The notes under the pieces were generated by a model. The model did no database searches. It was not told where the DNA came from and worked only from the letters and a program-made list of their open reading frames with translations. This document shows positions 2,401-53,035 of a DNA stretch of 64,000 nt, in pieces. Made by a program: the position numbers and the translations under genes. The DNA is from Lentisphaeria bacterium (GTDB taxonomy: Bacteria; Verrucomicrobiota; Lentisphaeria; Victivallales; UBA1829), in the NCBI GenBank assembly GCA_017646015.1, contig JAGCNI010000019.1, forward strand, positions 27,735 through 91,734. The letters run 5' to 3'. The stretch's first letter is position 1, and each line of letters begins with the position of its first letter.

Positions 2401-4401
2401 TTATTTTTTTGAAATTTGCTCAAAAAGTCTTCTTGCCGGGAGACAGTCCGGTTCTTTGAAGAGAATCCGTTCCAACATGGTTCGGGCTTCATTGATTTTT
2501 CCGGACATGGCAAGAGCTGCAGCCAGATTGACTTGCAGGCGGGTATTGCCGGGTTCGATCCTGACAGCCTGTTCAAAAAAGTTCACAGATTCCGCCGGTT
2601 TTCCCATCCGGATCAGAAGAACACCGAGATTATTCAGAGCTTTCCGGTGAGATGGATAAAGTTCCAGAGTCTTCCGCAAATATTTTTCCGCTTCTGCAAA
2701 ACGTTTTGTTCTTGAACAGATTTCCGCATGATTATAGTGAATATCTGCCAGTAATGCAGTATCTTTTGTCCGCACCGCAGCTTCCGCAAGAGATTTTTCC
2801 GCTTCCTGAAAACGTCCTGTTTCCAAAAGAACAGAAGCATAATTCAAATGTGTCTGCGGTTGATATTTCAGCAGAATAACAGCCTCCTTACAATATTTTT
2901 CTGCATTTTTATAATCTTTCAGATCCAGATATGCCTGCGATAAAAGGTTGATACGGCGTTCCGGAAAAAATTCATTTTTCATTGGCTTTTCATACTGTTT
3001 GACCACAATTTCAGGTTGTCCCGCTTTCAGACAGGCTGATGCCAGCAGAGAGCGGGCATATTCCATTTCCGGTGCGGCAGGGATTTGAAAAGCAAAGGAT
3101 GCGATCCCGAAAGAAAGTACAAAACACATCAGTGTCCGGGCTGTCATCCTGGGACCGCCCACATATTGACGGATGGAACAGAGCAGATAGGCAGAAAATA
3201 CTGCAAGCGGTACGATCAGCGGCAGACGGTATCTTCCGGCTGTAAGGAAGAAAATCTGTCCTGCAAATATTGCTGCAAAAAGCAGATATTCCGGTGCAAA
3301 GATTTTTCGTGTATGAGTTGAAAAGATGCCGCGGAAGAGAATCACTGAGCCCAGAAGAAACAACACCATGAACCATCCTTGAAACAGATATTTATGCCAG
3401 AAGATTTCTTTTGCCGCTGTTACATCTGACCATGTCGTATATTCTCTTGCATTGAGTGCCATTGCCGCTTTTTTCAGAAGATTCAATGTATAACGGACAG
3501 GATGATTTTTGATGAAATGGAAAATTTCCTCTTGATAAAAACGATCTTCGCTGATTCCCCGTTTCCGGCTTGTCAGTTCTGCACGTTCCGCTTCTTTATC
3601 CCAACGGAGTCCGGGAGAGAGCACACAGGTTCCATTGGCTGAGTACGAATTGCCCAGCCAGAGATTGAACATGCCGTTTTTCTGAATGAATACAGGGCGT
3701 TTTTCCTGAAGTGAATTATACAGACAGAGGGGTGCAACCAACAGGATCACTCCCAACAGATATGTGGAAGCCCGTTTGAATTTCTGAACTTTCCAGTCTT
3801 TTTTCCGGAAAAAGGAGTAGAGCAGGGCACAGGGAACAAAGAAGATACAGCCTGGATGAGTCAGTAACGCTGCCCCCGTGCATAATCCGGCAAAGAAATC
3901 CGCTGCTTTGCGGTGAAGGAAATAACACCACAATGCCCAGAGAAGAAATACAAGCATCAGATTTTCACTGAAAAAATCCGTTTGATATACGATCAGTGTC
4001 GGATAGAGACTCAGGATCAGACAACTCAGAAACGGGATTTTATTTTTCGGAGAACTGATCCCTGCAAACCGTTTCTGCAAAGTCAGAAAGAGCGGGAGCA
4101 GCATCAAAACCAACAGCAGAGAACTCTGCAGTAGTCTGACCATGAATAGATCCCCCCGTGTCAACGTGATCAGTCCCGCCAGAAAATAGGGATACAACGG
4201 TGCATGGATCCCGAATTCCGGCAGCAACGAAACATTACAGAGATGCATTGCCGCATTGAAATATTCCGATACATCCGGTCCCACGACATGTTCCATGACC
4301 GGCAATGCCGCAAAGGTGGAAAGATATACCGCTCTTGCGATGACCCCGGCAATGACCGGGATCAGAAATAATAAAAGGTTCTTGTTTTGTAAATTTTTCA
4401 T
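2401..4401 (-). CDS. Polytopic GT-C-like (ArnT/PMT-type) membrane protein with C-terminal TPR domain
   Basis: ORF 2401..4410. I prefer the ATG at 4401 (MKNLQNKN...), which forms an ATGA overlap with the PP2C stop. About 440 aa of repeated hydrophobic helices are followed by ~220 aa of TPR-like repeats (e.g. RFAEAEKYLRKTLELYPSHRKALNNLGVLLIRMGKPAESVNFFEQAVRIEPGN). Family assigned from architecture only. Confidence 0.55.
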   Translation of the reverse strand: MKNLQNKNLLLFLIPVIAGVIARAVYLSTFAALPVMEHVVGPDVSEYFNAAMHLCNVSLLPEFGIHAPLYPYFLAGLITLTRGDLFMVRLLQSSLLLVLMLLPLFLTLQKRFAGISSPKNKIPFLSCLILSLYPTLIVYQTDFFSENLMLVFLLWALWCYFLHRKAADFFAGLCTGAALLTHPGCIFFVPCALLYSFFRKKDWKVQKFKRASTYLLGVILLVAPLCLYNSLQEKRPVFIQKNGMFNLWLGNSYSANGTCVLSPGLRWDKEAERAELTSRKRGISEDRFYQEEIFHFIKNHPVRYTLNLLKKAAMALNAREYTTWSDVTAAKEIFWHKYLFQGWFMVLFLLGSVILFRGIFSTHTRKIFAPEYLLFAAIFAGQIFFLTAGRYRLPLIVPLAVFSAYLLCSIRQYVGGPRMTARTLMCFVLSFGIASFAFQIPAAPEMEYARSLLASACLKAGQPEIVVKQYEKPMKNEFFPERRINLLSQAYLDLKDYKNAEKYCKEAVILLKYQPQTHLNYASVLLETGRFQEAEKSLAEAAVRTKDTALLADIHYNHAEICSRTKRFAEAEKYLRKTLELYPSHRKALNNLGVLLIRMGKPAESVNFFEQAVRIEPGNTRLQVNLAAALAMSGKINEARTMLERILFKEPDCLPARRLFEQISKK

Positions 4402-5177
4402 ATCACCCACACATTCAATATGGTTACATTATCTCTTGCACCCCTCAGATACGTTATTTCCAGAAGATCATCCAGTGTTTCGACCGGATCGGTATTTTCT
4501 GTAATGATCTGACAGAGTTCCTGATCGTTGACATGTAATGTAAGTCCATCGGTACAGAACAGAAAACGGTCGCCGGATCGCAAGGGATGAATTGAAATTT
4601 CCGGATGCAGTTTTTTCAGCGGCCCGACTGCCTGTGTCAGCAGACGTCCTTCCGGATGACTCAGGGCGATTTCCTCCGGGACTTTTTCATTCCGGATCAT
4701 ATCATTTGCCACATTATGATCAATGGTCAACTGTTCATTCCTGCCCTGGCGGACACGATACACCCGGCTGTCTCCGGCATGGATGATGATAACAGATTTT
4801 TCTGTAAAGACCGCTGCTGCAAGAGTTGTTCCCATGATTTCTTTCCGGGGAGCGAGCAGGCTGAGTTGATGGATTTTATCACTGATTTCAGAAAGGTTTT
4901 TTTTCAGGAATTTTGCGATGGCTCTATTGATAAAGAAATTCGGGATTTGAAATTTCCGCCATTCCCGGAGGAGTATTTTACATGTCAGCGTGCTGGCAAT
5001 ATCGCCATTATGCCCGCCGCCGATCCCATCGGCAACAGCGGTCAGTAAATATTTACCATCCTGATCTGCCGCATAAACAAATGTATCTTCATTGCGTTTT
5101 CTGATCAGTCCCGGCAAAGAATCTCCGGAGATCAGAAACCGTTTGAAAACGGGAATTTCCTCTTTTTTCAACTGCAT
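4398..5177 (-). CDS. PP2C-family Ser/Thr protein phosphatase
   Basis: 259-aa ORF with PP2C motifs RKRNEDTF, AVADGIGGGHNGDIAS, IIHAGDSRVY, LFCTDGL, GARDNVT. Confidence 0.85.
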   Translation of the reverse strand: MQLKKEEIPVFKRFLISGDSLPGLIRKRNEDTFVYAADQDGKYLLTAVADGIGGGHNGDIASTLTCKILLREWRKFQIPNFFINRAIAKFLKKNLSEISDKIHQLSLLAPRKEIMGTTLAAAVFTEKSVIIIHAGDSRVYRVRQGRNEQLTIDHNVANDMIRNEKVPEEIALSHPEGRLLTQAVGPLKKLHPEISIHPLRSGDRFLFCTDGLTLHVNDQELCQIITENTDPVETLDDLLEITYLRGARDNVTILNVWVI

Positions 5178-5314
5178 AAAGTTTCAACTCACTCATTACT
5201 TTCTGCTTTCGACCTGCACTCGTAAAAGTACAAACATCCGGGGCATATTGTAGCACATTTCGCCGAGTTTGCAAGTGATCGGCTTTTTTTAGTTGAATAT
5301 TTTCAGGAAAATAC

Positions 5315-5343
5315 TTGCTTTTTATATAATAAAGAAGTATAGT
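5315..5343 (+). promoter_or_regulatory. Candidate sigma-70-type promoter (TTGCTT-N17-TATAGT)
   Basis: TTGCTT at 5315-5320, 17-nt AT-rich spacer, TATAGT at 5338-5343, 16 nt before the ATG at 5360. The same hexamer pair occurs at 18105-18132. Confidence 0.35.
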
Positions 5344-5359
5344 CCATCAAAAAAATATT

Positions 5360-6157
5360 ATGGAGATCATGCAGATGTTTTTTACGAAAAAGATTTTATC
5401 TCTTCTGATCCTGCTTGCCGGGATCACTTTGTCCGCTGCAGAGGGAACTTTCAATGAATTGCCGGTGAAGGTCGTTTTATTCCCGATCCGGGAAGCGACT
5501 CTTTCCACTCCGATTGACGGGATCATCAGTAAATACAACTTCCGCGGAGGGGAACGTTTCCGGAAAAATGATGTGCTTCTGACTCTGGATGACCGCAAGT
5601 TCAAAAATGAATTGCGCCGTACTGAATCCCTTGTCAAAGAGGCTGAAATGAATGTGGCTTTTACCAAACAGCGTCTGGAGGATAATGAAAGACTTTTGAA
5701 GAATGATCTTCAGAGTGAAATCGAAGTACTCCGCTCCCGTTTTGACTGGAATGTTGCGATCGAACGTCTGGAAACAGCCCGGATCAATCGGGATGGTGCT
5801 GCTTTGAATCTGTTGTTCTGTACCTTGCGTGCTCCGTTCAGCGGAACGATTGAAAAATTGCTGATCCGTGAATTTGAAATGGTGCGCGCCGGACAGCCGG
5901 TGCTGGCGATCATTGATGATACCGAATTACTGGCAGTGATGAATCTGCCGTCCTCCAAATTGTCTGCGGTGAAAAACGGTTTGCCTGTGACAGTGAAGAT
6001 CACGGAAAACAACCGGACAGTGCGCGGTACGATTTATGAAATTGCCTCCCGTGCGGATCATCGCAGCGAAACATTTGAGATCAAAGTGAAGATCAACAAC
6101 AGTAAACGTCTTTTCAAAGCCGGTATGTCCGGGGTCCTTATCAAACTCGGAGAATAA
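5360..6157 (+). CDS. HlyD/membrane-fusion-protein family periplasmic adaptor (short form)
   Basis: 265 aa. N-terminal signal/anchor (ILSLLILLAGITLSAAEG), lipoyl-like hairpin halves (STPIDGIISKYNFRGGERFRKNDVLLTLDD ... LRAPFSGTIEKLLIREFEMVRAGQPVLAIID), a coiled-coil insert and a beta-barrel segment (GLPVTVKI...TVRGTIYEI). Confidence 0.75.
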   Translation: MEIMQMFFTKKILSLLILLAGITLSAAEGTFNELPVKVVLFPIREATLSTPIDGIISKYNFRGGERFRKNDVLLTLDDRKFKNELRRTESLVKEAEMNVAFTKQRLEDNERLLKNDLQSEIEVLRSRFDWNVAIERLETARINRDGAALNLLFCTLRAPFSGTIEKLLIREFEMVRAGQPVLAIIDDTELLAVMNLPSSKLSAVKNGLPVTVKITENNRTVRGTIYEIASRADHRSETFEIKVKINNSKRLFKAGMSGVLIKLGE

Positions 6158-6160
6158 ACA

Positions 6161-7558
6161 ATGGCTGATAATCTGCAACAGGAAAATAATGCACTGAAAG
6201 CCCGTTTGAGTGCATTTGCCGGGATTCTCCGGTTGGGGCGTGACGCTTTTGAACAGGCTGATCTGACAGCTGTGGCGGTTCATATTGTAAACAATTCCAA
6301 ATCACTGCTTGCTTTTGACCGTTCTTCTCTTGTGGATATGAGGGGGCGGGCAAGAGTCATTGCCGAGTTTGCCCAGACGGATGTCAATCCGAATACAGAA
6401 CATGCTCAGGCGATCCGTGATTTGTGCAGTGAATTGACACCGGGAGATTCACCGTTGGAGATCGTTCCGGAAAATCCGCCGAAGGAAAATTTATCTGCCA
6501 AAGCCCGTACCGCATGGGAATTTCTGACAGCTGACGGGGTTCGTCTGTTGGTTGCACCTTTGCGTTCAGCCCGTTGGGAAGTGTCGCGTACAGAACCTTT
6601 CCTGTGGGTTTTGGAATACCGGAATCCTGTTCCGGCTCATGTCAGTGCCACACTTGCCCTGCTTGCTTCGGATTTCGGCAATGCGTTGTGGCAGCACACT
6701 CCGCAGAATGGGATCAAAGCGGCATTCCGCTGGTTCCGTAAAATTACAGTGATGCGTGTTTTTCTTGTGCTTCTGCTTTTGTTCCTGATTGCCATGTTCA
6801 CACTGAAAGTCGATCATACTGTTTCTGCTGAATTTGTAGTCAAACCGCAGGAACAGGTCAGTGCTTATGCTGAATTTGATGCTGTTGTGAAACAGTGTTA
6901 TTTCAATGATGGCGACAAGGTCAAAAAAGGTGATGTGATTCTCCGTTATGATACGGATCGTATGCGTTTTCAGCTCGCAGCTGCCCGTGCTGCATTCAAG
7001 GAAACGGATGCAGAATATGAACAGGAATCCAAAGCTTCTTTCACCGACCGGGATAAACTCGGCAAGCTCAAAGTTCTTGCTCATAAGCGGGAACAGGCAA
7101 AAGTTGCGATCGCCGAAGCAGAATGGTATCTGGCTCACAGCGAAGTCAAAGCTCTGTCCAACGGGGTGCTTGCGCTGGTCGATGGCAGTGCAGATAAACT
7201 TTCCGGAAGAGCATTGCGTACCGGGGAAAGATTGTTTGATATTTTTTCCGGAGAGGGCATGATCGCTGAAGTTATGGTCAATGAAAAAGATGCCTCAGTC
7301 CTGGAAAAAACTCCGCAGATCACTCTCTTTTTGCATACCCGTCCGGAACTGCCGATCCCGGTCAAATTGATTTCTGAACGTTATTATCCGGAGTTGACAG
7401 AACAGAATATTTACAGTTACAACTTGAAAGTTGCGATGGATAACACGATTCCCGGATTGCGTTATGGAATGCGTGGGGTCGCCCGGGTTTCTGGAGAACG
7501 GATCAATCTGGGATATTATCTGTTCCGGAGTCTGGTCCTCTGGTATCGCGGATTGTGA
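6161..7558 (+). CDS. HlyD-family adaptor with N-terminal cytoplasmic GAF-like domain
   Basis: 465 aa. First ~190 aa are soluble and GAF-like by pattern (LTAVAVHIVNNSKSLLAFDRSSLVDMRGRARVIAEF...). One TM follows (VMRVFLVLLLLFLIAMFTL), then an HlyD-like region (KKGDVILRYDTDRMRFQLAAARAAFKE..., SNGVLALVDG). The start is 3 nt after the previous stop. Confidence 0.6.
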   Translation: MADNLQQENNALKARLSAFAGILRLGRDAFEQADLTAVAVHIVNNSKSLLAFDRSSLVDMRGRARVIAEFAQTDVNPNTEHAQAIRDLCSELTPGDSPLEIVPENPPKENLSAKARTAWEFLTADGVRLLVAPLRSARWEVSRTEPFLWVLEYRNPVPAHVSATLALLASDFGNALWQHTPQNGIKAAFRWFRKITVMRVFLVLLLLFLIAMFTLKVDHTVSAEFVVKPQEQVSAYAEFDAVVKQCYFNDGDKVKKGDVILRYDTDRMRFQLAAARAAFKETDAEYEQESKASFTDRDKLGKLKVLAHKREQAKVAIAEAEWYLAHSEVKALSNGVLALVDGSADKLSGRALRTGERLFDIFSGEGMIAEVMVNEKDASVLEKTPQITLFLHTRPELPIPVKLISERYYPELTEQNIYSYNLKVAMDNTIPGLRYGMRGVARVSGERINLGYYLFRSLVLWYRGL

Positions 7559-7564
7559 TCAAAT

Positions 7565-9712
7565 ATGGAACGGGTCGATCCAACAACAGCGGCAGTTTCA
7601 TCAGCTGCCACTCAAGAAAAGCCCGCAGGGATATCGATACAAATGACTGGTTCTCTGCGTTCGGATATTCAATTCATTCCTCCGGGCGAGCATGGTTCTC
7701 AACCGATGATTTTTGATCCTCTGGCTGAAAATTATTTCAAACTGAGTGAAGAGTCCTGCAAGATTTTGCGTCTCCTGGATCAGAGTTATCAGCTGCCGGA
7801 TTTTATGCAGCGTTTGAAACAGAATGGTATGGATGCCGATCCGCAGGAGGTGTTGGAACTTTTATCTTTCATGCATCAGAATCAGTTGATGGTTCCTGAA
7901 TATGGCGGAATGAACAGCCGTTTGGAAAAAATGCGCAAGATGAAAGAGAAAACACGTTTCACCCGCTTTATTTCGATGTATATGTTTTTCCGTTTGCCGC
8001 CGATTCATCCGGATGGTTTTTTCTCTGTCGCAATGCCGTTTGTGCGTTTTATTTTCAACCGTTGGACCGTATGGTTTCTGGTTTTTCTTGCCGCGTGCGG
8101 TTATATTCTGATGCTCCGGCAGTGGACAGAAGCGTATGCAACGTTTGTGAACTCTCTTTCCTGGGCGAATCTGGTCAATTATTTCTGGGCATTGCTGATT
8201 ACAAAAAGTGTGCATGAACTTTCTCATGGTTTCACGGCTAAAAGTTTCGGCGCAAGGATCCGTTCCATGGGAATCAGTTTCATCGTATTTTATCCCCGTC
8301 TGTTTGTGGATTTGACCGATACCTGGCGTTTATCCCGTTGGAAACGGACTCTTTGTGACGGCGCAGGGATCATCAGTGAGTTGATTTTCGGGGGAATTGC
8401 GGCAATCATCTGGGCATACGCACAACCGGGACCGATGCGTTCCACAATGTTTTATCTGATGACTGTCAGTGCGCTGGGTACGATCCTTGTCAATGGAAAT
8501 CCATTCATCCGGTATGACGGTTATTATCTGCTGTGTGATATGCTGAACATTGAAAACCTGATGCAGCGTTCCAATGAATTCCTGAAAGCCTGCAACCGCC
8601 GTTTTTTTCTGGGGTTGGGGCGTGTCCCGGACAGCGGAGATGTTTCCCCTCTGACTCTCTATTTTTTCGGACTCGGTTCTTTCATATACAAATTATTTCT
8701 TTATACGTCGATCATCTTGATCATTTATTTTCAGTTTACCAAAGCTGTTGCTATTTTTCTGATGGTACTGGAAGCCTATACAATGCTGATAATGCCGTTT
8801 ATCATGGAGGTTAAAATCGTGCTTATGAATCACAAAAAACTGAATGGAATGAAAAGTCTGGCAACCGGAATTCTGGTTTTGGCATTACTTTCTCTCCTGT
8901 TTATTCCGCTGCCCTGGTCCTTTGCTCTCCCGTGCGAGATCGTCCCGGAAAACAGCCGCCTCATTATCGTGAAAGAAGCTGCATTTGCCGCAGAGGATCT
9001 GAGCGAAGAGCCGCGCAGAATCAAAAAAGGTGATACCATTCTCAAGTTTGAAAATGTATTTCTGGACTTCAATATCCTGCGTTATGCGGCGATCCTCAAA
9101 ACCAATCAGGCTGAACTGGAACTTGCCCGTTCGGATAACCGGACATTGGCATTGAGTCCTGTCTATTTTGAAAAGCTGCGTGTCAACCGTATCTCTCACA
9201 GCGAAATGATACGCCGTCGCGGAAATATGGATCTGAAAGCTGATGCAGATGGGATTTTTGTCCCCGCCGTAAAAGAGGTGTACCGTGGACGCTGGCTTGA
9301 AAAAGGGACTGTTCTCGGCAGAATCTCGTCGGAAGAGAATACGGTTTATGCCTATGCGCTGGATCGGGAGGTCAACCGGATCCAGATCGGGGACAGTGTG
9401 CAGTTGGTTCTGCGGGGAGAGTTGACGAAAACACGGGGACGTGTGACTGCTGTCAATCCGGTGGCTGTGACATTGCGTGATTCCGCTCTGGTTCAACATC
9501 TCGGCGGAACTGTTCCCTGTTATCCTGTGAAAGAAAGACCCGATGAATTTTCTCCTGTCAATGTATTATATTGTGTGACAGTAACACCGGAAAAGCCGCT
9601 TTCCAAACGGGTTGGCAGAACCGGGATCGCATACGTGAAACAGAGTTATATTCTGGCTGTTGAGCTGGGGAGACAACTCTTGCATATTTTCTTCCGCGAA
9701 TTTTCTTTCTGA
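7565..9712 (+). CDS. Site-2-protease (M50)-like membrane metalloprotease fused to an N-terminal PqqD-like domain and C-terminal HlyD-like domain
   Basis: 715 aa. HELSH (HExxH) lies in a hydrophobic segment and NPFIRYDGYY is the second M50 signature. The N-terminal ~90 soluble aa look PqqD/RRE-like (PMIFDPLAENYFKLSEESCKILRLLDQSYQLPDFMQRL). There are multiple TM helices and a C-terminal barrel/lipoyl-like region (IKKGDTILKFEN..., IQIGDSVQLVLRGELTKTRGRVTAVNP). Confidence 0.7.
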   Translation: MERVDPTTAAVSSAATQEKPAGISIQMTGSLRSDIQFIPPGEHGSQPMIFDPLAENYFKLSEESCKILRLLDQSYQLPDFMQRLKQNGMDADPQEVLELLSFMHQNQLMVPEYGGMNSRLEKMRKMKEKTRFTRFISMYMFFRLPPIHPDGFFSVAMPFVRFIFNRWTVWFLVFLAACGYILMLRQWTEAYATFVNSLSWANLVNYFWALLITKSVHELSHGFTAKSFGARIRSMGISFIVFYPRLFVDLTDTWRLSRWKRTLCDGAGIISELIFGGIAAIIWAYAQPGPMRSTMFYLMTVSALGTILVNGNPFIRYDGYYLLCDMLNIENLMQRSNEFLKACNRRFFLGLGRVPDSGDVSPLTLYFFGLGSFIYKLFLYTSIILIIYFQFTKAVAIFLMVLEAYTMLIMPFIMEVKIVLMNHKKLNGMKSLATGILVLALLSLLFIPLPWSFALPCEIVPENSRLIIVKEAAFAAEDLSEEPRRIKKGDTILKFENVFLDFNILRYAAILKTNQAELELARSDNRTLALSPVYFEKLRVNRISHSEMIRRRGNMDLKADADGIFVPAVKEVYRGRWLEKGTVLGRISSEENTVYAYALDREVNRIQIGDSVQLVLRGELTKTRGRVTAVNPVAVTLRDSALVQHLGGTVPCYPVKERPDEFSPVNVLYCVTVTPEKPLSKRVGRTGIAYVKQSYILAVELGRQLLHIFFREFSF

Positions 9713-9722
9713 GGAGTTTGAG

Positions 9723-10400
9723 ATGCCGGATAAAAAACAGGAGATCCGTGTATGGCGGACATCCCGGGAAGATATTTTTCTCTGTGAAGGAAAGAGTGTG
9801 ACTATTCCTTCCGGTTGGATTTTTGTTCCTTCCGGTGATCCCGGATTGACACGACGCTTGAAAGCTTCCGGGGATTACTGGGTATTGGTCCATAAACGTA
9901 AAAACCGTATTGAAGCATTGGGTCTGTTCACATTGTCAGCTCAGTTCGATCGTGTCAAACGGATCCTGGAAATGGAACGTTCAACTCCGGCATACCGTAA
10001 TAAATTGGATGCCGGCAGAAAACGCAGAGAAGAAGAACAGAACCAGTATGTTGTCACTTTCCGCAAAGCTGTGATGGATTTTCTGGCATTTGCACCCCGT
10101 TATCAGGAGTTGGCGGAACGTTTTGCTGCGGCGGTAACGGATCATGCTGTTCCTGTCGGGAGCGGGACAGTGGCAAGGACACAGCGGATCCCGATCGAAC
10201 AGCGTGCCGAGGCCGCTGTGATTGCATGGATGCGTCATCAGACTACCGCCTATGATACTATGTCTATTGCCCGGATCAGAGGAGAACGTCGGGAAGTCCG
10301 GCGGCGATTGGCGGAACGATCCCGGCAGTTGCTTGCCCGTTACCGTTCCGGAGAAGAGGTCGATCCGCAACTTTGTCCGCTCTGTAAAGCGTTAGATTGA
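9723..10400 (+). CDS. DUF2293-like basic protein
   Basis: ORF track starts at 9660, overlapping the M50 gene. I prefer ATG 9723 (MPDKKQEIRVW...), preceded by GGAG at 9713-9716. The C-terminal segment AAVIAWMRHQTTAYDTMSIARIRGERREVRRRLAERS matches my recollection of the DUF2293 RH-x-x-T-x-YD pattern. Confidence 0.5.
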   Translation: MPDKKQEIRVWRTSREDIFLCEGKSVTIPSGWIFVPSGDPGLTRRLKASGDYWVLVHKRKNRIEALGLFTLSAQFDRVKRILEMERSTPAYRNKLDAGRKRREEEQNQYVVTFRKAVMDFLAFAPRYQELAERFAAAVTDHAVPVGSGTVARTQRIPIEQRAEAAVIAWMRHQTTAYDTMSIARIRGERREVRRRLAERSRQLLARYRSGEEVDPQLCPLCKALD

Positions 10401-10402
10401 AT

Positions 10403-10441
10403 AAAAAAATCCGGCAGCACATACAGTGTGTACGCTGCCGG
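10403..10441 (-). terminator. Rho-independent terminator for the CN-hydrolase/GDPD gene (possibly bidirectional)
   Basis: GC-rich stem CCGGCAGC (10411-10418) / GCTGCCGG (10434-10441). On the minus strand it is followed by a U7 tract (plus-strand A7 at 10403-10409). It lies between convergent genes. Confidence 0.55.
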
Positions 10442-10469
10442 ACCGGATCACAAATGATTTACCAGCTGT

Positions 10470-12182: not shown

Positions 12183-14378
12183 TCAGAACTCTTTTGTAAC
12201 ACGGTAGTCCGCCTGATATACTTTGGTCGATTCCAAGCTGACAATGCCCTCATTATAAAGATTTTCCAATGATTTTTCCAGCGTGATCATGCCATCCTTG
12301 TAACTGGTTTCGATGACCGATTGCAGTTGATGTGTTTTCCCATCCCGGATCAAGGCTTTCACTGGAGGTGTTCCGACCATGATTTCAAATGCGGCGGCAC
12401 GACCGGAACCATCCAGTTTCGGGAGAAGTCTTTGTGAAATCACGCCGAGGATTACACTGGAAAGCTGCAAACGGATCTGATTCTGCTGATAACTCGGGAA
12501 TGAGTCGATGATTCTGTCGATCGTCTGCGGTGCGCTGTTGGTATGGATCGTGGCAAACACAAGGTGTCCGGTCTCTGCGGCGGTGAGGGCGGCGGCGATG
12601 GTTTCCACATCGCGCATTTCCCCGACCATGATCACATCCGGATCCTGGCGCAGGGCATGACGCAGAGCCGCAGCAAAACTCAAGGTGTCCGAATGAAGTT
12701 CCCGTTGTTCAATGATCGAATAAAGGTTGTTATGCACAAATTCGATCGGATCTTCCACCGTAATGATCTTGGCATTGCGTTTCTGATTCAACTGATCCAG
12801 CATACAGGCAAGAGTGGTAGATTTTCCGCTGCCGGTTGGTCCTGTCACCAGCACAAGCCCCTGATGTTTGTCAAGAAGAGAAAGCAATGTCGGCGGGAGA
12901 GTGAGTTCTTCCGGCGAGGGGATCCGTGTATTGACGACCCTGGCGACAACTCCGAGAGTTCCGCGCTGATAAAAGGCATTGACACGGAAACGGGTGAATG
13001 TTTCGCTGTCTTTTTCCAACGTGACGGACAATGCAAAATCCAATTCCCGCTTTTCTTCCAGTTCGATTCTCTGTCGGGGGGAGATCACACTGTAAAGCAA
13101 ACGCTGGATGTCTGCACTGCTCAATGCCGGAAGCTGCAAGGTCCTGAGGATTCCGTTGATACGCAGGATCGGGGCGGATTTATTGGTCAGATGTAAGTCG
13201 CTTGCTCCGGTTGAGACTGCAACCCGGAGAAGAGAACGCATATCCACAAAAGTTCCCTCGTCATCATCAAAATTGTTTCCGTAATGACTGCGGAAAGAGT
13301 CCACCCCGGTTTCCATCCCTTTGACCAGAAGATTGAATTCATCGGGATTATTGACTGTTTTCAGTGCATCTTCCAATGTGATTTTATCATCTTTGAATAA
13401 ACGGAAAATTGCGCGGTTGAATGTGACCATCCCACTTTCCGAACCTTGTTTCAAAGCGTCTTCAAGAATTTTGAAATCTCTGTCCATCACTGCCTTACAA
13501 ACAGTCGGTGTGCCGTGCATGATTTCGACAGCTGGAATCATGCTCTCTTCCTGTTTCATCGGGATCAAACGTTGTGAGATGATCGCCTGAAGAGCCATAC
13601 CGAGATCAATGGAGAGCTGATCACGCTGATGTGTCGGGAACATATTGATGATCCGTTCTATGGTCTGCACCGTATCAGCGGTATGAACAGTACTGATAAC
13701 AAGATGTCCGGTCAGGGCAGCATTGAGAGCGATCGTAATGGTTTCCTGATCGCGCATTTCTCCGATTACGATCACATCCGGATTTTCACGCAATGCACTC
13801 CGTAGAGCTTCTGCGAAACTGACAACATTCGAGTTGATTTCACGTTGAGAGAGCAACGATTTCTGATTGTCATGCAGAAATTCGATCGGATCTTCAATGG
13901 TGAGAATATGTTTTTCTTCTGTCCGGTTGATCAGATTGATCAAAGCACCGAGCGTGGTAGATTTTCCACTTCCTGTGGAACCTGTTACAAGGATGAGTCC
14001 GCGCGGAACAGAACAGATTTGTTGAAGAATGGATGGCAGATGTAATTTTTCCAAATCCAAGTCATTGCCGGAGCGGATCGGGCGTGCCGCCATGGAAGGT
14101 CCGCAGACCGTTGAAAAAAAGTTGATACGGAAACGTTCTTCCCGTGTCAGCGAATAAGAGGAGTCATAGGAACCGGTGCGTTCATATTGTTCTTCTCCGC
14201 GAGAGCCGATCACCATCCGGCGGAATTGATCGATTTCTTCTGCGGGAAGTGGGGCATCATGAGTTTGTATGACTCTGCCTTTCTGTCGGAATGCCGGAGT
14301 TTTTCCAGCACTGAAAAATACATCCGATATTCCCTGAACCAGAGCTTCGTGCAAATAATTCTGAATGATATCTGTCAT
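12183..14378 (-). CDS. Tandem (two-copy) PilT/PilU-family type IV pilus retraction ATPase in one polypeptide
   Basis: ORF 12183..14432. I prefer ATG 14378 (MTDIIQNY...), which lies behind GGAGG and avoids overlap with the upstream gene. Two complete ATPase units are present. Unit 1: GSTGSGKST, ILTIEDPIEFLH, PDVIVIGEMRD, LTGHLVISTVHT. Unit 2: GPTGSGKST, IITVEDPIEFVH, PDVIMVGEMRD, ETGHLVFATIHT, plus an AIRNLIRE-like VKALIRDGKTHQL. Confidence 0.85.
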   Translation of the reverse strand: MTDIIQNYLHEALVQGISDVFFSAGKTPAFRQKGRVIQTHDAPLPAEEIDQFRRMVIGSRGEEQYERTGSYDSSYSLTREERFRINFFSTVCGPSMAARPIRSGNDLDLEKLHLPSILQQICSVPRGLILVTGSTGSGKSTTLGALINLINRTEEKHILTIEDPIEFLHDNQKSLLSQREINSNVVSFAEALRSALRENPDVIVIGEMRDQETITIALNAALTGHLVISTVHTADTVQTIERIINMFPTHQRDQLSIDLGMALQAIISQRLIPMKQEESMIPAVEIMHGTPTVCKAVMDRDFKILEDALKQGSESGMVTFNRAIFRLFKDDKITLEDALKTVNNPDEFNLLVKGMETGVDSFRSHYGNNFDDDEGTFVDMRSLLRVAVSTGASDLHLTNKSAPILRINGILRTLQLPALSSADIQRLLYSVISPRQRIELEEKRELDFALSVTLEKDSETFTRFRVNAFYQRGTLGVVARVVNTRIPSPEELTLPPTLLSLLDKHQGLVLVTGPTGSGKSTTLACMLDQLNQKRNAKIITVEDPIEFVHNNLYSIIEQRELHSDTLSFAAALRHALRQDPDVIMVGEMRDVETIAAALTAAETGHLVFATIHTNSAPQTIDRIIDSFPSYQQNQIRLQLSSVILGVISQRLLPKLDGSGRAAAFEIMVGTPPVKALIRDGKTHQLQSVIETSYKDGMITLEKSLENLYNEGIVSLESTKVYQADYRVTKEF

Positions 14379-14394
14379 GGCGGAACCTCCCTTT

Positions 14395-15051
14395 TTAACT
14401 GCTGAGTTTATTTTGTGTTTCAAGTGCGGCAAGACGTTTTTTTACAGTCTGTATTTCAGATGCTGTCATTTTTCCATGCCGCAGCGCATGATGAAAACAA
14501 CTGATGACAGCTGCCGTCTGGTGCTGTTGTGATTGCAGATCGGCATAAAACATCAGAACTTTCAGATAATACGGATCCTGCCGGACTGCACCGTTCCTGA
14601 AAAAAGTTTCGGCTGTTGTTATGGCTTTTTCCTGTTGATGAAAAATATTTCCATGGAGTTCCAGAAGCAGCCATGTGATCTCCGCATCTGCCGGATATTG
14701 TGAGTGCAATGTAAGCAAACTCTGTTCGGCTTCTGCATATTTTCCTGTGTTGATCATTCCATGGATCGGGGAGAGTATGACCGGAGCTTTTTTCAGAAAT
14801 CTTCTCGGGAAGAGCAGGCCGTATGAAAAGTTTTCTGCAATCTGCGGAAGAAAAATCTTTGTAAATAAAATCCCTGTGATCAATGCGGTGACAAGTGCAA
14901 AAAGCAGATAGATCAAGGCGGAGACAGTTGAAGCGGAAAAGGCCTTGACTGCAAAATATGCTGTCAGGAGAAGCATGAAGAAAAAGAAGAGACGTTCTCC
15001 GATCTTTCCCAGTCTTTCATTGAGTATATACAGCAACAGCTTTTTATCCAT
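14395..15051 (-). CDS. Small membrane protein with cytoplasmic TPR-like helical domain (hypothetical)
   Basis: 218 aa. Two hydrophobic helices (FFFFMLLLTAYFAVKAF, LIYLLFALVTALITGILFTKIF), then helical repeats (GKYAEAEQSLLTLHSQYPADAEITWLLLELHGN...). The stop is 16 nt upstream of the tandem ATPase start. Confidence 0.5.
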   Translation of the reverse strand: MDKKLLLYILNERLGKIGERLFFFFMLLLTAYFAVKAFSASTVSALIYLLFALVTALITGILFTKIFLPQIAENFSYGLLFPRRFLKKAPVILSPIHGMINTGKYAEAEQSLLTLHSQYPADAEITWLLLELHGNIFHQQEKAITTAETFFRNGAVRQDPYYLKVLMFYADLQSQQHQTAAVISCFHHALRHGKMTASEIQTVKKRLAALETQNKLSS

Positions 15052-45234: not shown

Positions 45235-46086
45235 ATGCAGATGATTTTCCGGCGAATTCTGTATTACATTATTCCGTGTTTGCTGTTTATTTTATTTTGC
45301 ACAGCCTGTTGTTCGAGTCCATTTCAGTTGAAAACGGCTGAAATGACTCTTCCCGGCTGGGATCCTGCCCACAGGGATGTTACATTCCTTGTTATTTCCG
45401 ATCTGCACCTCCGTCCGGAGATTCTGGATCGCCGTTTTTACAGAGTTCTCGAAAGACGAGTGAAAGAATTGGATCCGGATATTGTTTTTCTGTTGGGGGA
45501 TCTTCTGGATTTCAATTCCAAAGGAAAGATTGCTCCTGTCAAGGAAAAAATGCTTTCCATTCTTTCCAATCTGCGAGGGCGTTACGGCAGTTATGCCGTG
45601 ATCGGGAATCATGAAGTTTATTGCGGAGAAGGTATGTCTGTTGAACTTTTCCAGGAAGCCGGTTATACGGTATTGCAGGATGAATTACAGACTGTTGAGA
45701 TCAATGGCCGTCCGCTCTCTTTTATCGGGGTTCAAGAGGGATATAGACAGAATAAATATCTGCCTGCCCGTTTGAAAGAACTGTTGAAAAAAAATCCGGT
45801 TCCGCTGATTCTCTGTCACCGTCCGGATCTGTTTGATGGTTTCCCGCTTGAAACACCATTTATTTTTTTATCCGGTCACACCCATGGTGGTTTATTTTCC
45901 TTTCCCTTTCTGCGTTCCGGCGTTTTTCATTTCAAAGGGCGGCCGGTGTACCGCAAATATCCGTATGGCATATTCCGTTCCGGGAAGGGCAAGCTGCTTG
46001 TGACCAGTGGTCTTGGTGACAGCAATTATTACAGCCGGTTCAATATTCCGTATGAGGTCGTACTTTTGAAGATCCGTCCGGAGTGA
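45235..46086 (+). CDS. Calcineurin-like metallophosphoesterase (YkuE-type), membrane-anchored
   Basis: I prefer ATG 45235, behind GGAG (the ORF track uses TTG 45223). FLVISDLHL, LLGDLLDF, VIGNHE, LSGHTHGG. Confidence 0.8.
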   Translation: MQMIFRRILYYIIPCLLFILFCTACCSSPFQLKTAEMTLPGWDPAHRDVTFLVISDLHLRPEILDRRFYRVLERRVKELDPDIVFLLGDLLDFNSKGKIAPVKEKMLSILSNLRGRYGSYAVIGNHEVYCGEGMSVELFQEAGYTVLQDELQTVEINGRPLSFIGVQEGYRQNKYLPARLKELLKKNPVPLILCHRPDLFDGFPLETPFIFLSGHTHGGLFSFPFLRSGVFHFKGRPVYRKYPYGIFRSGKGKLLVTSGLGDSNYYSRFNIPYEVVLLKIRPE

Positions 46087-47461
46087 GGCGGACTTGCATC
46101 TCTTCCGGCTTAGGCAGTCGGGGCGTATCCATGGATTGCAGGAGTTGTGCGATTGCAAATCCGAGAAAGAAAAGAATTCCGAGAGCCAGAAGAAACAGGA
46201 TCGTTTTTATGAGTTTTTCATGTTTCTGCTGTTGCGGCGGCAATTGGAAATCTTCGACATTCATTGTCTGTACGGAACTGATCGGTCGTGCATCACTTCT
46301 TTGTTGATTCAATTTGATATGCGGTTCAGCCGGATGAATGGCGGAACGGCGTTTTTTCAGAAGAGCGGAAGGTGATTTTACTTTGTATGCCGCTGCGGTG
46401 ATTCTTTTTTCACTTCCGGAGAGTTCCGGCAGAGGGATATCCCGGAGGAGGGCAATGGGAACAGTGTCCGTATTATTGAGATACGAAGAAAGGACTTTGA
46501 TGATTTCCGTGTAACTTGGACGTTGTTCCGGGTAACGGTGCATCATACTGATGATCAAAGCATTCAGGACAGGGGGGATATCATGCCTCAGTTGAATGGG
46601 CGGTTTTGGATTTTCCCGGGTTCTGCACCAGATCAATTCTTCCAGATGTTCGTGCATGAACGGAGGGACACCTGTCAAGAGATGATAGAATGTTGCTCCG
46701 AGGCTATAAATATCGCCAGCCTGAGTTTCTTTTCCTGTACTGATTTTTTCGGGGCTGACATAGAGGGGGCTGACCCATGTATCCGTGGTTGAATTGACCG
46801 CATTATCTGCTGCTTCGAGCAGACTTTGTGCGATTCCGAAGTCACCGATTTTTGCATTGCCGTCTTCATCCAGCATGATGTTTGCGGGTTTGATATCGTG
46901 ATGAACGATTCCATGGCGCATTGCACTTTCCAATCCCTCGGCGACATCATGGATCCATTGTGCGACATCTTCACATGGGAGCGGTTCTTCAGAGAGTTCC
47001 AACTTTGTTTCGAGAGTTCCGCCCCGCATGAACTGCATAACGATATAAGTTTGTTTTTCATAGATTCCGCAAGTATAGATCGGGATCACAGAATAATGAT
47101 TGATCGTAGCGGTGGTTCTTGCCTCATTCAGGAAGATGTTGGATCGTTCACTTTCCGGGAGGATCTCTTCATTGAGGATTTTGATTGCAACTTCCCGGTC
47201 GAGCGTAACATCCAGCGCGCGGTAAACATTGGACATTCCGCCGATCCCGCAGGGTTCTTCCAGAAGATACTGTCCGAACCATTTCGGGATGATCAGCATT
47301 TCATTGCAAACCGGACATTCTATTTTTGAAAAAGGTTCGATTCCGGTCACATCGAGTTTCTGCTGACATTTGTGGCAAAAAATCTTGATCGTCCGGGTGC
47401 TGTCCGAGTCTGACTGCGTGCGGATCGTGATATTATTTCCCTGATTGATCTGCTCATCCAT
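46040..47461 (-). CDS. Hanks-type Ser/Thr protein kinase with N-terminal zinc-ribbon and C-terminal TM anchor
   Basis: 473 aa. CHKCQQKL...CPVCNEM (CxxC...CxxC), GIGGMSNVYRALD, VAIKIL, HHDIKPANIML, IGDFGIA. TM ILFLLALGILFFLGFAIAQLL near the C-terminus. Confidence 0.85.
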   Translation of the reverse strand: MDEQINQGNNITIRTQSDSDSTRTIKIFCHKCQQKLDVTGIEPFSKIECPVCNEMLIIPKWFGQYLLEEPCGIGGMSNVYRALDVTLDREVAIKILNEEILPESERSNIFLNEARTTATINHYSVIPIYTCGIYEKQTYIVMQFMRGGTLETKLELSEEPLPCEDVAQWIHDVAEGLESAMRHGIVHHDIKPANIMLDEDGNAKIGDFGIAQSLLEAADNAVNSTTDTWVSPLYVSPEKISTGKETQAGDIYSLGATFYHLLTGVPPFMHEHLEELIWCRTRENPKPPIQLRHDIPPVLNALIISMMHRYPEQRPSYTEIIKVLSSYLNNTDTVPIALLRDIPLPELSGSEKRITAAAYKVKSPSALLKKRRSAIHPAEPHIKLNQQRSDARPISSVQTMNVEDFQLPPQQQKHEKLIKTILFLLALGILFFLGFAIAQLLQSMDTPRLPKPEEMQVRLTPDGSSKVRPHTEY

Positions 47462-52182: not shown

Positions 52183-53035
52183 GTAGAGCTTCCGGAGGAC
52201 AGAAAAATCTCCGGCGGATGAATGTCATACCCATTCCCGCAGAGATAAACAGTCTTGTACCGCTTTTCCTGTGCTGATAGAGACCGTATTCAAATTTTTT
52301 CCAGTGAATGGAAGAGGTCATGACTGCCCCGAACCCGGGAATACGGATCTGTCCGCCGTGGGTGTGTCCGCACAGGATCAGATCGATTCCGGCAAGATCC
52401 TGTTCTGTCAATGTTTCCGGGATCGTATCGGGATTGTGAGCAATGACACATTCAAACATTTTCTGCGGCTGTTTTTGCGGTTGATAGAAAGGAGCACCTT
52501 TCCGGTATTCATCCAAACCGTAAAAACGGATTTTATTATCGGGAGTCACAAGGGCTTCATTTTCGAGAATTTGTATATTTCCCTGTTGGGAAATCATTTC
52601 TTTCCATTTTTTCTGAGGCAACCATTTTTTCATCAAATCCCAGTTGCCATAGACGCCAGCTTTGACACCATCGCAGGAGATGGATGCAAGCAAATCTGTT
52701 GTTTCCTGAAAATTACAGAGATATGCCATCAGATCCCCGCCGGAGATCAGGTGATCCGGGCGGTATTCCGAGATGAAATCCCGGAGAAAATTTTTTGCAG
52801 GAACATGGTTGTTCCATTCCGCTTTGCCGGGGAAGAAAGAGATACAACTTTGCGGTCTCAGGTGGAGGTCGGAGAAAAAAAGAATCCGTGTTCTGTTCAA
52901 ATCAGAACACGAATTCCATGAATGAGTATAAAACACCTGCCGGAAAGCACCTGTATTTTTTATTTGCAGGTACTTTTCCGGATTTCTGACTTTTTTCCAG
53001 TCAGAAGGATCATGTTTCAGCTCAGCCCCTTTCAC
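52157..53035 (-). CDS. Calcineurin-like metallophosphoesterase (YkuE-type)
   Basis: 292 aa. GTG start in a GTGA overlap with the greA-like stop. ILFFSDLHL, GGDLM, YGNWD, LCGHTHGGQIRIPGFG. Confidence 0.8.
   Translation of the reverse strand: MKGAELKHDPSDWKKVRNPEKYLQIKNTGAFRQVFYTHSWNSCSDLNRTRILFFSDLHLRPQSCISFFPGKAEWNNHVPAKNFLRDFISEYRPDHLISGGDLMAYLCNFQETTDLLASISCDGVKAGVYGNWDLMKKWLPQKKWKEMISQQGNIQILENEALVTPDNKIRFYGLDEYRKGAPFYQPQKQPQKMFECVIAHNPDTIPETLTEQDLAGIDLILCGHTHGGQIRIPGFGAVMTSSIHWKKFEYGLYQHRKSGTRLFISAGMGMTFIRRRFFCPPEALLIEICGSR

Follow-up and report, generated by a model that had tools for sequence, protein, structure and literature searches.

A conserved triad of adaptor-bearing proteins built round a site-2 protease in a Victivallales bacterium, and its link to giant DUF4347 proteins in related loci

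The closest described systems to the locus reported here are of two kinds. One is the daptide leader peptidase MpaP (NCBIfam NF041824), described in the daptide paper as a single protein in which a RiPP-recognition element (RRE) at the N-terminus is fused to an intramembrane site-2 protease, which takes off the leader. The other comprises the periplasmic adaptors of tripartite efflux and type I secretion, such as MacA, HlyD, EmrA and MexA, together with the two-adaptor pump TriABC-OpmH, which shows that one pump can combine different types of adaptor. We analysed a stretch of 64,000 nucleotides (the window; GenBank assembly GCA_017646015.1, contig JAGCNI010000019.1, positions 27,735 to 91,734 of the forward strand) from a bacterium of the Victivallales (Lentisphaerota), in which three plus-strand open reading frames (ORFs), separated by 3 and 6 nt, encode proteins of both kinds: H1 (5360..6157), H2 (6161..7558) and P3 (7565..9712). 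The same triad is kept in several phyla, where it recurrently adjoins a TolC-like outer-membrane factor (OMF) and giant proteins with a DUF4347 domain. We tentatively propose, with slightly less than even confidence, that the triad is the core, in the inner membrane and the periplasm, of a machine that spans the envelope and has a protease in the place of the pump; the RRE would bind, and the M50 core cut, the leader of the giants.

In P3, as in MpaP, an RRE-like domain at the N-terminus precedes an M50 core that bears HExxH, and residues 31-411 of P3 align with positions 3-365 of the 379 in the daptide protease model. The score is 153 bits against an equivalog cutoff of 300, and P3 has, in contrast to MpaP, an additional periplasmic adaptor module of about 270 residues. 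The loci also differ, since triad loci have neither daptide tailoring genes nor short precursors, and the partners of the protease are instead two adaptors, an OMF and the giants. Triad hosts belong to Gram-negative phyla, whereas MpaP hosts belong to the Actinomycetota or Bacillota. With MacA, HlyD, EmrA and MexA, the proteins H1, H2 and P3 share the lipoyl, alpha-hairpin and beta-barrel fold, and in related loci also the linkage to an OMF. In contrast to tripartite pumps and to type I secretion systems (T1SS), the triad has no ABC, RND or MFS transporter, the protease is its only polytopic component, and two of its three adaptor-bearing proteins are fused to cytoplasmic domains (GAF-like and RRE). 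Because P3 falls below the daptide cutoff, and because the loci have no daptide cluster and no inner-membrane transporter, the triad is a member of neither class; it resembles a hybrid of an RRE-guided leader peptidase such as MpaP with an adaptor/TolC assembly of the MacA, HlyD or TriAB type.

Two further systems may be likened to the triad in function. Peptidase-containing ABC transporters, whose export of bacteriocins depends on a leader, would share with it the concept that the export apparatus itself contains the protease by which an N-terminal leader is recognised and cut; they rely on a C39 cysteine protease together with an ABC ATPase, whereas the triad has a zinc intramembrane protease with an RRE and no ATPase, and its candidate cargo is thousands of residues long. 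The LapA/LapG/LapD system may be compared for its giant repeat surface protein, its N-terminal proteolysis and an inner-membrane ligand-sensing protein that controls the protease. The proteins themselves are unrelated, LapG being a periplasmic cysteine protease and LapD a GGDEF/EAL receptor of c-di-GMP. Finally, the giants linked to the triad resemble in their leader the LEPR-XLL (NF012209)/DUF4347 proteins, of which the window encodes none.

P3 is a fusion of 715 residues (RRE, M50 protease, adaptor), for which the AlphaFold2 (AF2) model has a pLDDT of 83.4. In the model, the cytoplasmic N-terminal domain (residues ~30-110; 7652..7894, + strand) is built, with a pLDDT of ~85, of strands 36-38, 48-51 and 56-59, followed by helices 62-69, 77-86 and 93-105. 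This order of three strands and three helices is the RRE topology, a winged helix of about 85 residues as in PqqD, and the region is covered by the daptide model. Pfam PqqD matches 3 of 21 P3 homologues (best E 2.3e-4), the window protein itself giving E 0.22. The lasso-peptide RRE TfuB1 matched the region weakly in a profile search (E 0.15 to 0.5); with a mixed RRE profile (A8) this match was lost and no RRE was matched. We consider the assignment of the domain as an RRE to be moderately supported.

The polytopic M50 core follows (7907..8902, + strand), with about 7 transmembrane (TM) helices; in the AF2 model the helical membrane core spans residues 115-446. HELSH (residues 217-221; 8213-8227) lies within the helix 200-227, and the second M50 motif is NPFIRYDGYY (8498-8527), of which NPFIRYDG comprises residues 312-319. 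The second motif of M50 proteases, NxxPxxxxDG, provides with its Asp the third zinc ligand. H217, E218, H221, N310, N312, P313, D318 and G319 are invariant in 34 P3 homologues, and the HExxH and NPFIRYDG-type motifs are invariant also in a distant group that is 22% identical to P3; the zinc active site is intact. Pfam Peptidase_M50 (PF02163) scores the window protein at 26.4 bits (cutoff 27.2), and most homologues carry a precomputed PF02163 match. The predicted topology has the N-terminus inside, 7 TM helices and the C-terminus outside, with the K/R-rich loops on the cytoplasmic side, and from this the N-terminal domain and the active site would be cytoplasmic and the adaptor periplasmic.

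The C-terminal adaptor module of P3 (8906..9709, + strand; alpha-hairpin at residues 498-553, beta-barrels) was identified with Foldseek against the PDB, with MacA as the best match (E 6e-12) and EmrA, ZneB and MexA as weaker ones. A PDB profile search also matched the module to MacA (E 6e-4), and the fused TriAB adaptor 6vej was among the PDB profile matches. The Foldseek search with the whole of P3 was dominated by adaptors, and is thus uninformative on the RRE and M50 folds.

H1 is a periplasmic adaptor (membrane-fusion protein) of 265 residues with an N-terminal signal or anchor (+ strand). It matches NCBIfam RND_mfp (TIGR01730) with 145 bits (cutoff 94.9) and Pfam HlyD_3 with 84 bits, and is by these scores a bona fide adaptor. 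H2 (465 residues, + strand; AF2 model with a pLDDT of 89.1) combines a cytoplasmic N-terminal domain (residues 1-190; 6161..6730), a single TM helix (VMRVFLVLLLLFLIAMFT, residues 197-214; 6749..6802) and a periplasmic adaptor module (6806..7555) with a lipoyl domain, an alpha-hairpin at residues 266-325 and a beta-barrel. Foldseek places this module with MacA (E 8.6e-16), and with MexA, AcrA and ZneB, over a range of 1e-16 to 1e-11; with RND_mfp it scores 51.7 bits, under the same cutoff. The model of the N-terminal domain starts with a long helix, followed by an alpha/beta domain (residues 35-178) with the topology a-b-b-a-b-a-b-b-a, an order which fits the GAF fold. The window H2 N-terminus has no Pfam match, and N-termini of H2 from Lentisphaerota alone gave no GAF match in Pfam or PDB profile searches. 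H2 homologues of the distant group align with the window protein over its full length, the N-terminal domain included, and among 24 scanned N-terminal domains Pfam GAF matches six (best E 1.2e-4) and GAF_2 three, all of them in distant homologues. A mixed H2 profile gave weak PDB matches to the GAF domains 3k2n (E 0.19) and BphP, with E 0.19 to 1.3. In the Foldseek search with the whole H2 model the top 50 PDB matches were all adaptors, which drowned any comparison with GAF domains, and a viral library was uninformative, with only weak histidine kinase matches (E ~2e-3). The N-terminal domain of the window H2 is, most likely, a divergent GAF domain, as judged from its distant homologues.

Much of this had been read from the letters alone in an earlier note on this DNA. 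Its coordinates for the three genes and the gaps between them are exact. The HlyD-like modules that it saw in all three proteins are borne out by RND_mfp for H1 and by Foldseek matches to MacA, MexA and EmrA for H2 and the P3 C-terminus, and its two M50 signatures are present in P3 with their key residues conserved. Its PqqD/RRE-like and GAF-like regions also find support, which for the former comes from the daptide model and the PqqD matches in homologues, for the latter from Pfam GAF in distant homologues, the window sequence being weak in both cases. Of the profiles that the note proposed to scan, HlyD_3 was matched, M50 fell just short of its cutoff, PqqD was weak and GAF gave no match in the window H2.

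All three genes are genuine, each having hundreds of full-length homologues with E values down to 0. The closest homologues are from Victivallales/Lentisphaeria metagenome-assembled genomes (MAGs), and two ENA metagenome contigs of the same organism carry identical genes. A profile search of 1.84 billion representative proteins yielded 18,344 relatives of P3, of which 4715 lie below E 1e-30 (50%-identity clusters). The top 150 are all about 700 residues long and match over their full length, and the fused architecture is therefore widespread. Named members of the distant group include Nitrosomonas, Methylobacter, Magnetococcales, Thalassospira, Niveispirillum, Marivibrio, Roseitalea and gammaproteobacterial MAGs. 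These members carry generic names only ('HlyD family efflux transporter periplasmic adaptor subunit', 'site-2 protease family protein' and 'putative peptide zinc metalloprotease protein'), and the source databases name the family after YydH. A search of the literature found no study of M50-adaptor fusions.

To survey gene neighbourhoods, we collected 80 loci from GTDB (one genome per species), almost all from Victivallales/Lentisphaeria with one from Planctomycetota and one from Desulfococcaceae, and surveyed 80 further loci from at least 600 matches in a metagenome scan with the distant P3 group, whose named members are Proteobacteria. Loci are cited below by L numbers. Those from GTDB were analysed by ORF calling, clustering and hidden Markov model searches of six-frame translations; cluster c3 of the first survey was set aside as presumed antisense ORFs in GC-rich loci. 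H2 lies beside P3 in 74 of the 80 GTDB loci and H1 directly upstream of H2 in 71, the exceptions being mostly truncated contigs; in the metagenome set H2 was found in 65/80 and H1 in 55/80, the remainder being mostly cut by contig ends. The sizes in the latter set are about 250 (H1), 445 (H2) and 700 residues (P3). The order H1-H2-P3 is conserved in Lentisphaerota, Planctomycetota and many Proteobacteria. Some genomes have several paralogues, with three in Victivallis vadensis DSM 14823. Each protein of the triad bears an adaptor module of the TolC-docking type, and in general no transporter gene accompanies them.

Neighbours were counted in the 42 Lentisphaerota loci with a full upstream flank of 10 kb and in the 28 metagenome loci with at least 8 kb. 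An OMF gene is present in 20/42 and 18/28 of these, respectively, a giant protein in 22/42 and 15/28 (a DUF4347 giant in the latter set), and one or the other in 25/42 and 25/28. The recurrent OMF is TolC-like (Pfam OEP match) and is a lipoprotein in the Lentisphaerota set. An HlyB-type ABC gene was found in 4/42 and 0/28 loci and a T1SS-type HlyD gene in 5/42 and 0/28, while no RND or MFS pump gene is among the recurrent neighbours. The gene orders vary, and include giant-OMF-H1-H2-P3, which a Thalassospira MAG also shows in gene calls made independently, OMF-H1-H2-P3-giant, H1-giant-H2-P3, a giant on the opposite strand that diverges from OMF-H1-H2-P3, and an OMF-giant operon that is divergent. 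The order H1-giant-H2-P3 comes from two metagenome loci (L085:617-8602 and L089:1397-8629), where the triad operon is split between H1 and H2 by the giant LEPR-XLL/DUF4347 gene. That the linkage is kept despite rearrangement across phyla is a strong argument for a functional connection. The earlier note held that cassettes consistently found in standard ABC or RND tripartite loci would make this one a pump fragment; the ABC counts above go against this, and what recurs of such a locus is the adjacent TolC-like OMF. The neighbourhood survey of M50-HlyD fusions that it proposed was to look for recurrent small ORFs, DUF2293 or OMF genes, and among these it is the OMF genes that recur. The triad is supported as a distinct conserved assembly.

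The giants of Lentisphaerota have from 1000 to more than 2600 residues, with DUF4347 and Chlam_PMP/beta-helix repeats. Every giant with a visible N-terminus has a leader. A few residues past the Met, the Lentisphaerota proteins, and the Planctomycetota example with them, carry [FY]x-LE[DEN]R[VI]L[FY][DE][AG]AAA, with the variant LEDRVLFEAAAA followed by DUF4347; the metagenome giants with a visible N-terminus start with [AS]LE[PQS]R[IVLM][MLV]FD[GA]A, and in the one checked by Pfam DUF4347 follows. The overall leader, LE(P/D)R(I/V)(L/M)F(D/E)(G/A)AA, resembles LEPR-XLL, and the only Lentisphaerota leader that matched the LEPR-XLL model scores 10.5 bits, below the cutoff of 17. The leader and part of the DUF4347 region are the best-conserved segments of the giants, with a column identity of 0.67 compared with 0.2 to 0.4 elsewhere. 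The literature search found no function or partner published for the LEPR-XLL motif and no function for DUF4347. At the extreme C-terminus, too, the giants share a conserved amphipathic motif, [AS]FK[SD][DE][LF]E[KL]LL[DE]E in Lentisphaerota and GFKEQIAFENQKL in those of L085 and L089, which was seen in L025-L054, L073, L085, L089 and L103 and may be a second targeting signal. In the complete genome of Lentisphaerota strain zth2, a protein of 277 residues consists of just leader and DUF4347 (L070:9181-10014), and its gene overlaps the start of an M50-adaptor gene that has no H1 and H2 beside it; this arrangement is either a minimal or a decayed version of the system.

Some loci show further features at the OMF gene or at the M50-adaptor gene. 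Directly upstream of the OMF gene in eight Lentisphaerota loci (L041:3192-3464(-), L070:6973-7329(+), L040, L043, L055, L066, L069 and L073) lies a gene for a protein of about 90 residues with the motif GIGQIHFAGGMVRFDF and no Pfam or NCBIfam match, which could serve the system as a chaperone or a regulator. L004, L006, L011 and L013, among the closest relatives of the window, have an OMF of 732-738 residues with C-terminal Sel1 repeats (e.g. L006:5406-7610), an extension that is unusual among TolC-like proteins. In two Thalassospira MAGs (L163:12334-16888 and L164:9572-14126) a Qat-type defence cluster (TatD, QueC-like, QatB and KAP NTPase) lies directly downstream of the M50-adaptor gene, and is probably unrelated to it.

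With these data, the likely substrate of the triad would be a giant DUF4347 protein with the LE(P/D)RxxF leader, rather than a small RiPP-like peptide as the earlier note had supposed. In the proposed machine, the RRE of P3 would bind the leader of the giant in the cytoplasm and the M50 site, facing the cytoplasmic leaflet, would remove it. The adaptor modules of H1, H2 and P3 would form a mixed ring below an outer-membrane channel and dock the OMF, thereby coupling processing to the passage or display of the giant, and the GAF-like domain of H2 may gate the process in response to a small ligand. Several points weigh against this proposal. Leader binding and cleavage are suggested by gene neighbourhood; the leader is not transmembrane-like, and classical site-2 proteases cut membrane helices. 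Nothing in the cluster encodes a source of energy for the movement of proteins thousands of residues long, and the window's own RRE and GAF sequences score below the family thresholds. About 40% of the Lentisphaerota triads are orphans like that of the window, with unrelated neighbours, including its closest relatives L001, L003, L005, L009 and L010. In addition, an HlyB-HlyD-OMF-giant-H1-H2-P3 operon is present in 4 to 6 Lentisphaerota loci (L038, L042, L046, L047, L048 and L054), and the giants have the conserved amphipathic C-terminus; a classical T1SS may therefore do the export.

The last two points are also the basis of the principal rival explanation, which we consider unlikely, that the triad is a LapD/LapG-like device for the retention and release of a T1SS substrate. 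Here HlyB/HlyD/TolC, encoded nearby or elsewhere, would export the giant with its C-terminus first and the triad would have no export role, docking instead under the same channel, with the RRE holding the leader until a cut by the M50 core frees the giant; the GAF-like domain would sense an intracellular trigger. In favour of this are the combined operons and the conserved amphipathic C-terminus, as in T1SS substrates; the RRE and the active site lie in the cytoplasm, where the N-terminus of a T1SS substrate leaves last, and H2 has a cytoplasmic sensor-like domain fused to an adaptor. Against this, an HlyB-type ABC or T1SS-type HlyD gene is absent from all 28 metagenome loci and present in only 4 to 5 of the 42 Lentisphaerota loci, the cluster has its own OMF, and a site-2 protease in such a role is without experimental precedent.

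The recurrence of the OMF and of leader-bearing giants also bears on the substrate proposed in the earlier note, a small ribosomal peptide (RiPP-like or bacteriocin-like) whose short precursor, encoded elsewhere, would be bound by the RRE, cut by M50 and released through the adaptor ring. Among named families, the daptide leader peptidases are indeed the closest to P3 residues 31-411, and the databases name the family after YydH, but the score is about half the equivalog cutoff, and across the 160 loci no conserved small precursor ORF, daptide gene or other RiPP tailoring enzyme was seen. Tandem ORFs of about 100 residues (metagenome clusters c10 and c13) were considered as precursor peptides and rejected, their composition and periodicity indicating antisense frames of the repetitive giant genes. 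We regard a small peptide as an improbable substrate, though a possible one for orphan copies such as that of the window. Still less probable is regulated intramembrane proteolysis of the RseP or SpoIVFB type, in which P3 would cleave a membrane-anchored regulator and the adaptors would only sense the state of the envelope. This is the classical M50 function and would suit the sensor-like GAF domain, but in the 160 loci neither an anti-sigma factor nor an ECF (extracytoplasmic function) sigma factor nor a membrane-tethered regulator is a recurrent neighbour of the triad, and the three full adaptor modules, whose hairpins are of the TolC-docking type, argue together with the linked OMF gene for a role coupled to a channel. 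That the triad is what remains of an ordinary tripartite efflux pump (ABC, RND or MFS) after loss of the transporter gene is an explanation we can hardly credit at all: H1 is annotated and scores as an RND-type adaptor, and P3 is publicly annotated as an efflux adaptor subunit, but the pump-less triad, with its protease site intact, is kept in thousands of 50%-identity clusters and in the 160 surveyed loci, of which at most 6 have an HlyB-type ABC gene next to the triad, and where RND and MFS genes do not recur.

Downstream of P3 in the window, a gene for a DUF2293 protein of 225 residues (9723..10400, + strand; Pfam 78 bits) starts with an ATG at 9723, 11 nt past the P3 stop and behind a GGAG at 9713-9716, as the earlier note had described. 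No terminator-like site was found between the two genes, and co-transcription of H1, H2, P3 and DUF2293 is therefore plausible. The note had counted DUF2293 with the cassette, which the survey does not bear out. BLAST with the window protein in the 80 GTDB loci matched only the window itself, and DUF2293 is not among the recurrent neighbours in the 80 metagenome loci, where no dedicated search for it was made; the gene is present only in contigs of the same genome. It appears to be a lineage-specific passenger outside the conserved system, probably co-transcribed with it. A hairpin at 10410..10443, read from the sequence, has a perfect 9-bp inverted repeat (TCCGGCAGC / GCTGCCGGA), a 15-nt loop and an A-run flank. 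The DUF2293 and CN_hydrolase-GDPD genes converge on it from either side, and it is likely to end the operon as a terminator for both directions.

The upstream intergenic region (5178..5359, + strand) is the presumed promoter region of the operon. It gave no significant sigma-70 match and, in agreement with the earlier note, holds no plausible small leader or peptide ORF; in a promoter/terminator consensus scan the real sequence did no better than shuffled sequence. The gene divergent from the cassette encodes a PP2C-type phosphatase (4398-5177(-)), an adjacency that is not kept in related loci, and a Ser/Thr protein kinase is encoded elsewhere in the window (46040-47461(-)). The phosphatase and a PMT_2/TPR protein, both divergent on the upstream side, and the CN_hydrolase-GDPD, T2SSE ATPase, LysRS and other genes downstream, are unrelated to the cassette, and the remaining genes of the window are for housekeeping and glycan degradation. 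The T2SSE-family secretion ATPase (12183-14432(-)) has 749 residues with an extra N-terminal P-loop region and is followed by a TPR protein (14395-15051(-)); no further type II secretion or type IV pilus genes were identified near it. In a 702-residue protein (53032-55140(-)) the sole recognisable part is a C-terminal GreA/GreB domain, residues 542-687. Rfam and tRNA scans of the window found nothing.

As had been noted before, no ABC, RND, MFS or TolC-like gene adjoins the cassette, and tblastn with the neighbour families of related loci found no pump or TolC-like gene in the whole window. Nor does the window encode an OMF, a DUF4347 giant, any leader-bearing ORF or any component of a type I secretion set (HlyB-type ABC, HlyD-type adaptor, TolC-type OMF). 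It holds an orphan core of the system, whose channel and substrate would be encoded elsewhere in the genome.

Giant repeat proteins whose N-terminus is of the LEPR-XLL/DUF4347 type are common among Gram-negative bacteria, both environmental and host-associated, and our search of the literature found no published route for their secretion or processing. In related loci, such giants are linked to a conserved module of five genes, which encode an OMF, two adaptors, the RRE-M50-adaptor fusion and the giant itself, and this link gives both orphan families a testable partner. It is possible, although we hold it doubtful, that triad and OMF form a previously unrecognised diderm secretion system for giant LEPR-XLL/DUF4347 surface proteins, in which an RRE-guided M50-adaptor would replace the ABC transporter, an N-terminal signal the C-terminal one, and a GAF-adaptor would gate the process from the cytoplasm. 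The current annotations 'HlyD family efflux transporter adaptor' and 'YydH' are misleading for this family, and experiments are feasible because it is found in named genera that have members in culture (Victivallis vadensis, Nitrosomonas, Methylobacter, Thalassospira). If the proposed machine is correct, it would be an adaptor/TolC assembly built round a protease and not a pump, and proteolysis guided by an RRE would act not only on small natural-product precursors but also on proteins thousands of residues long.

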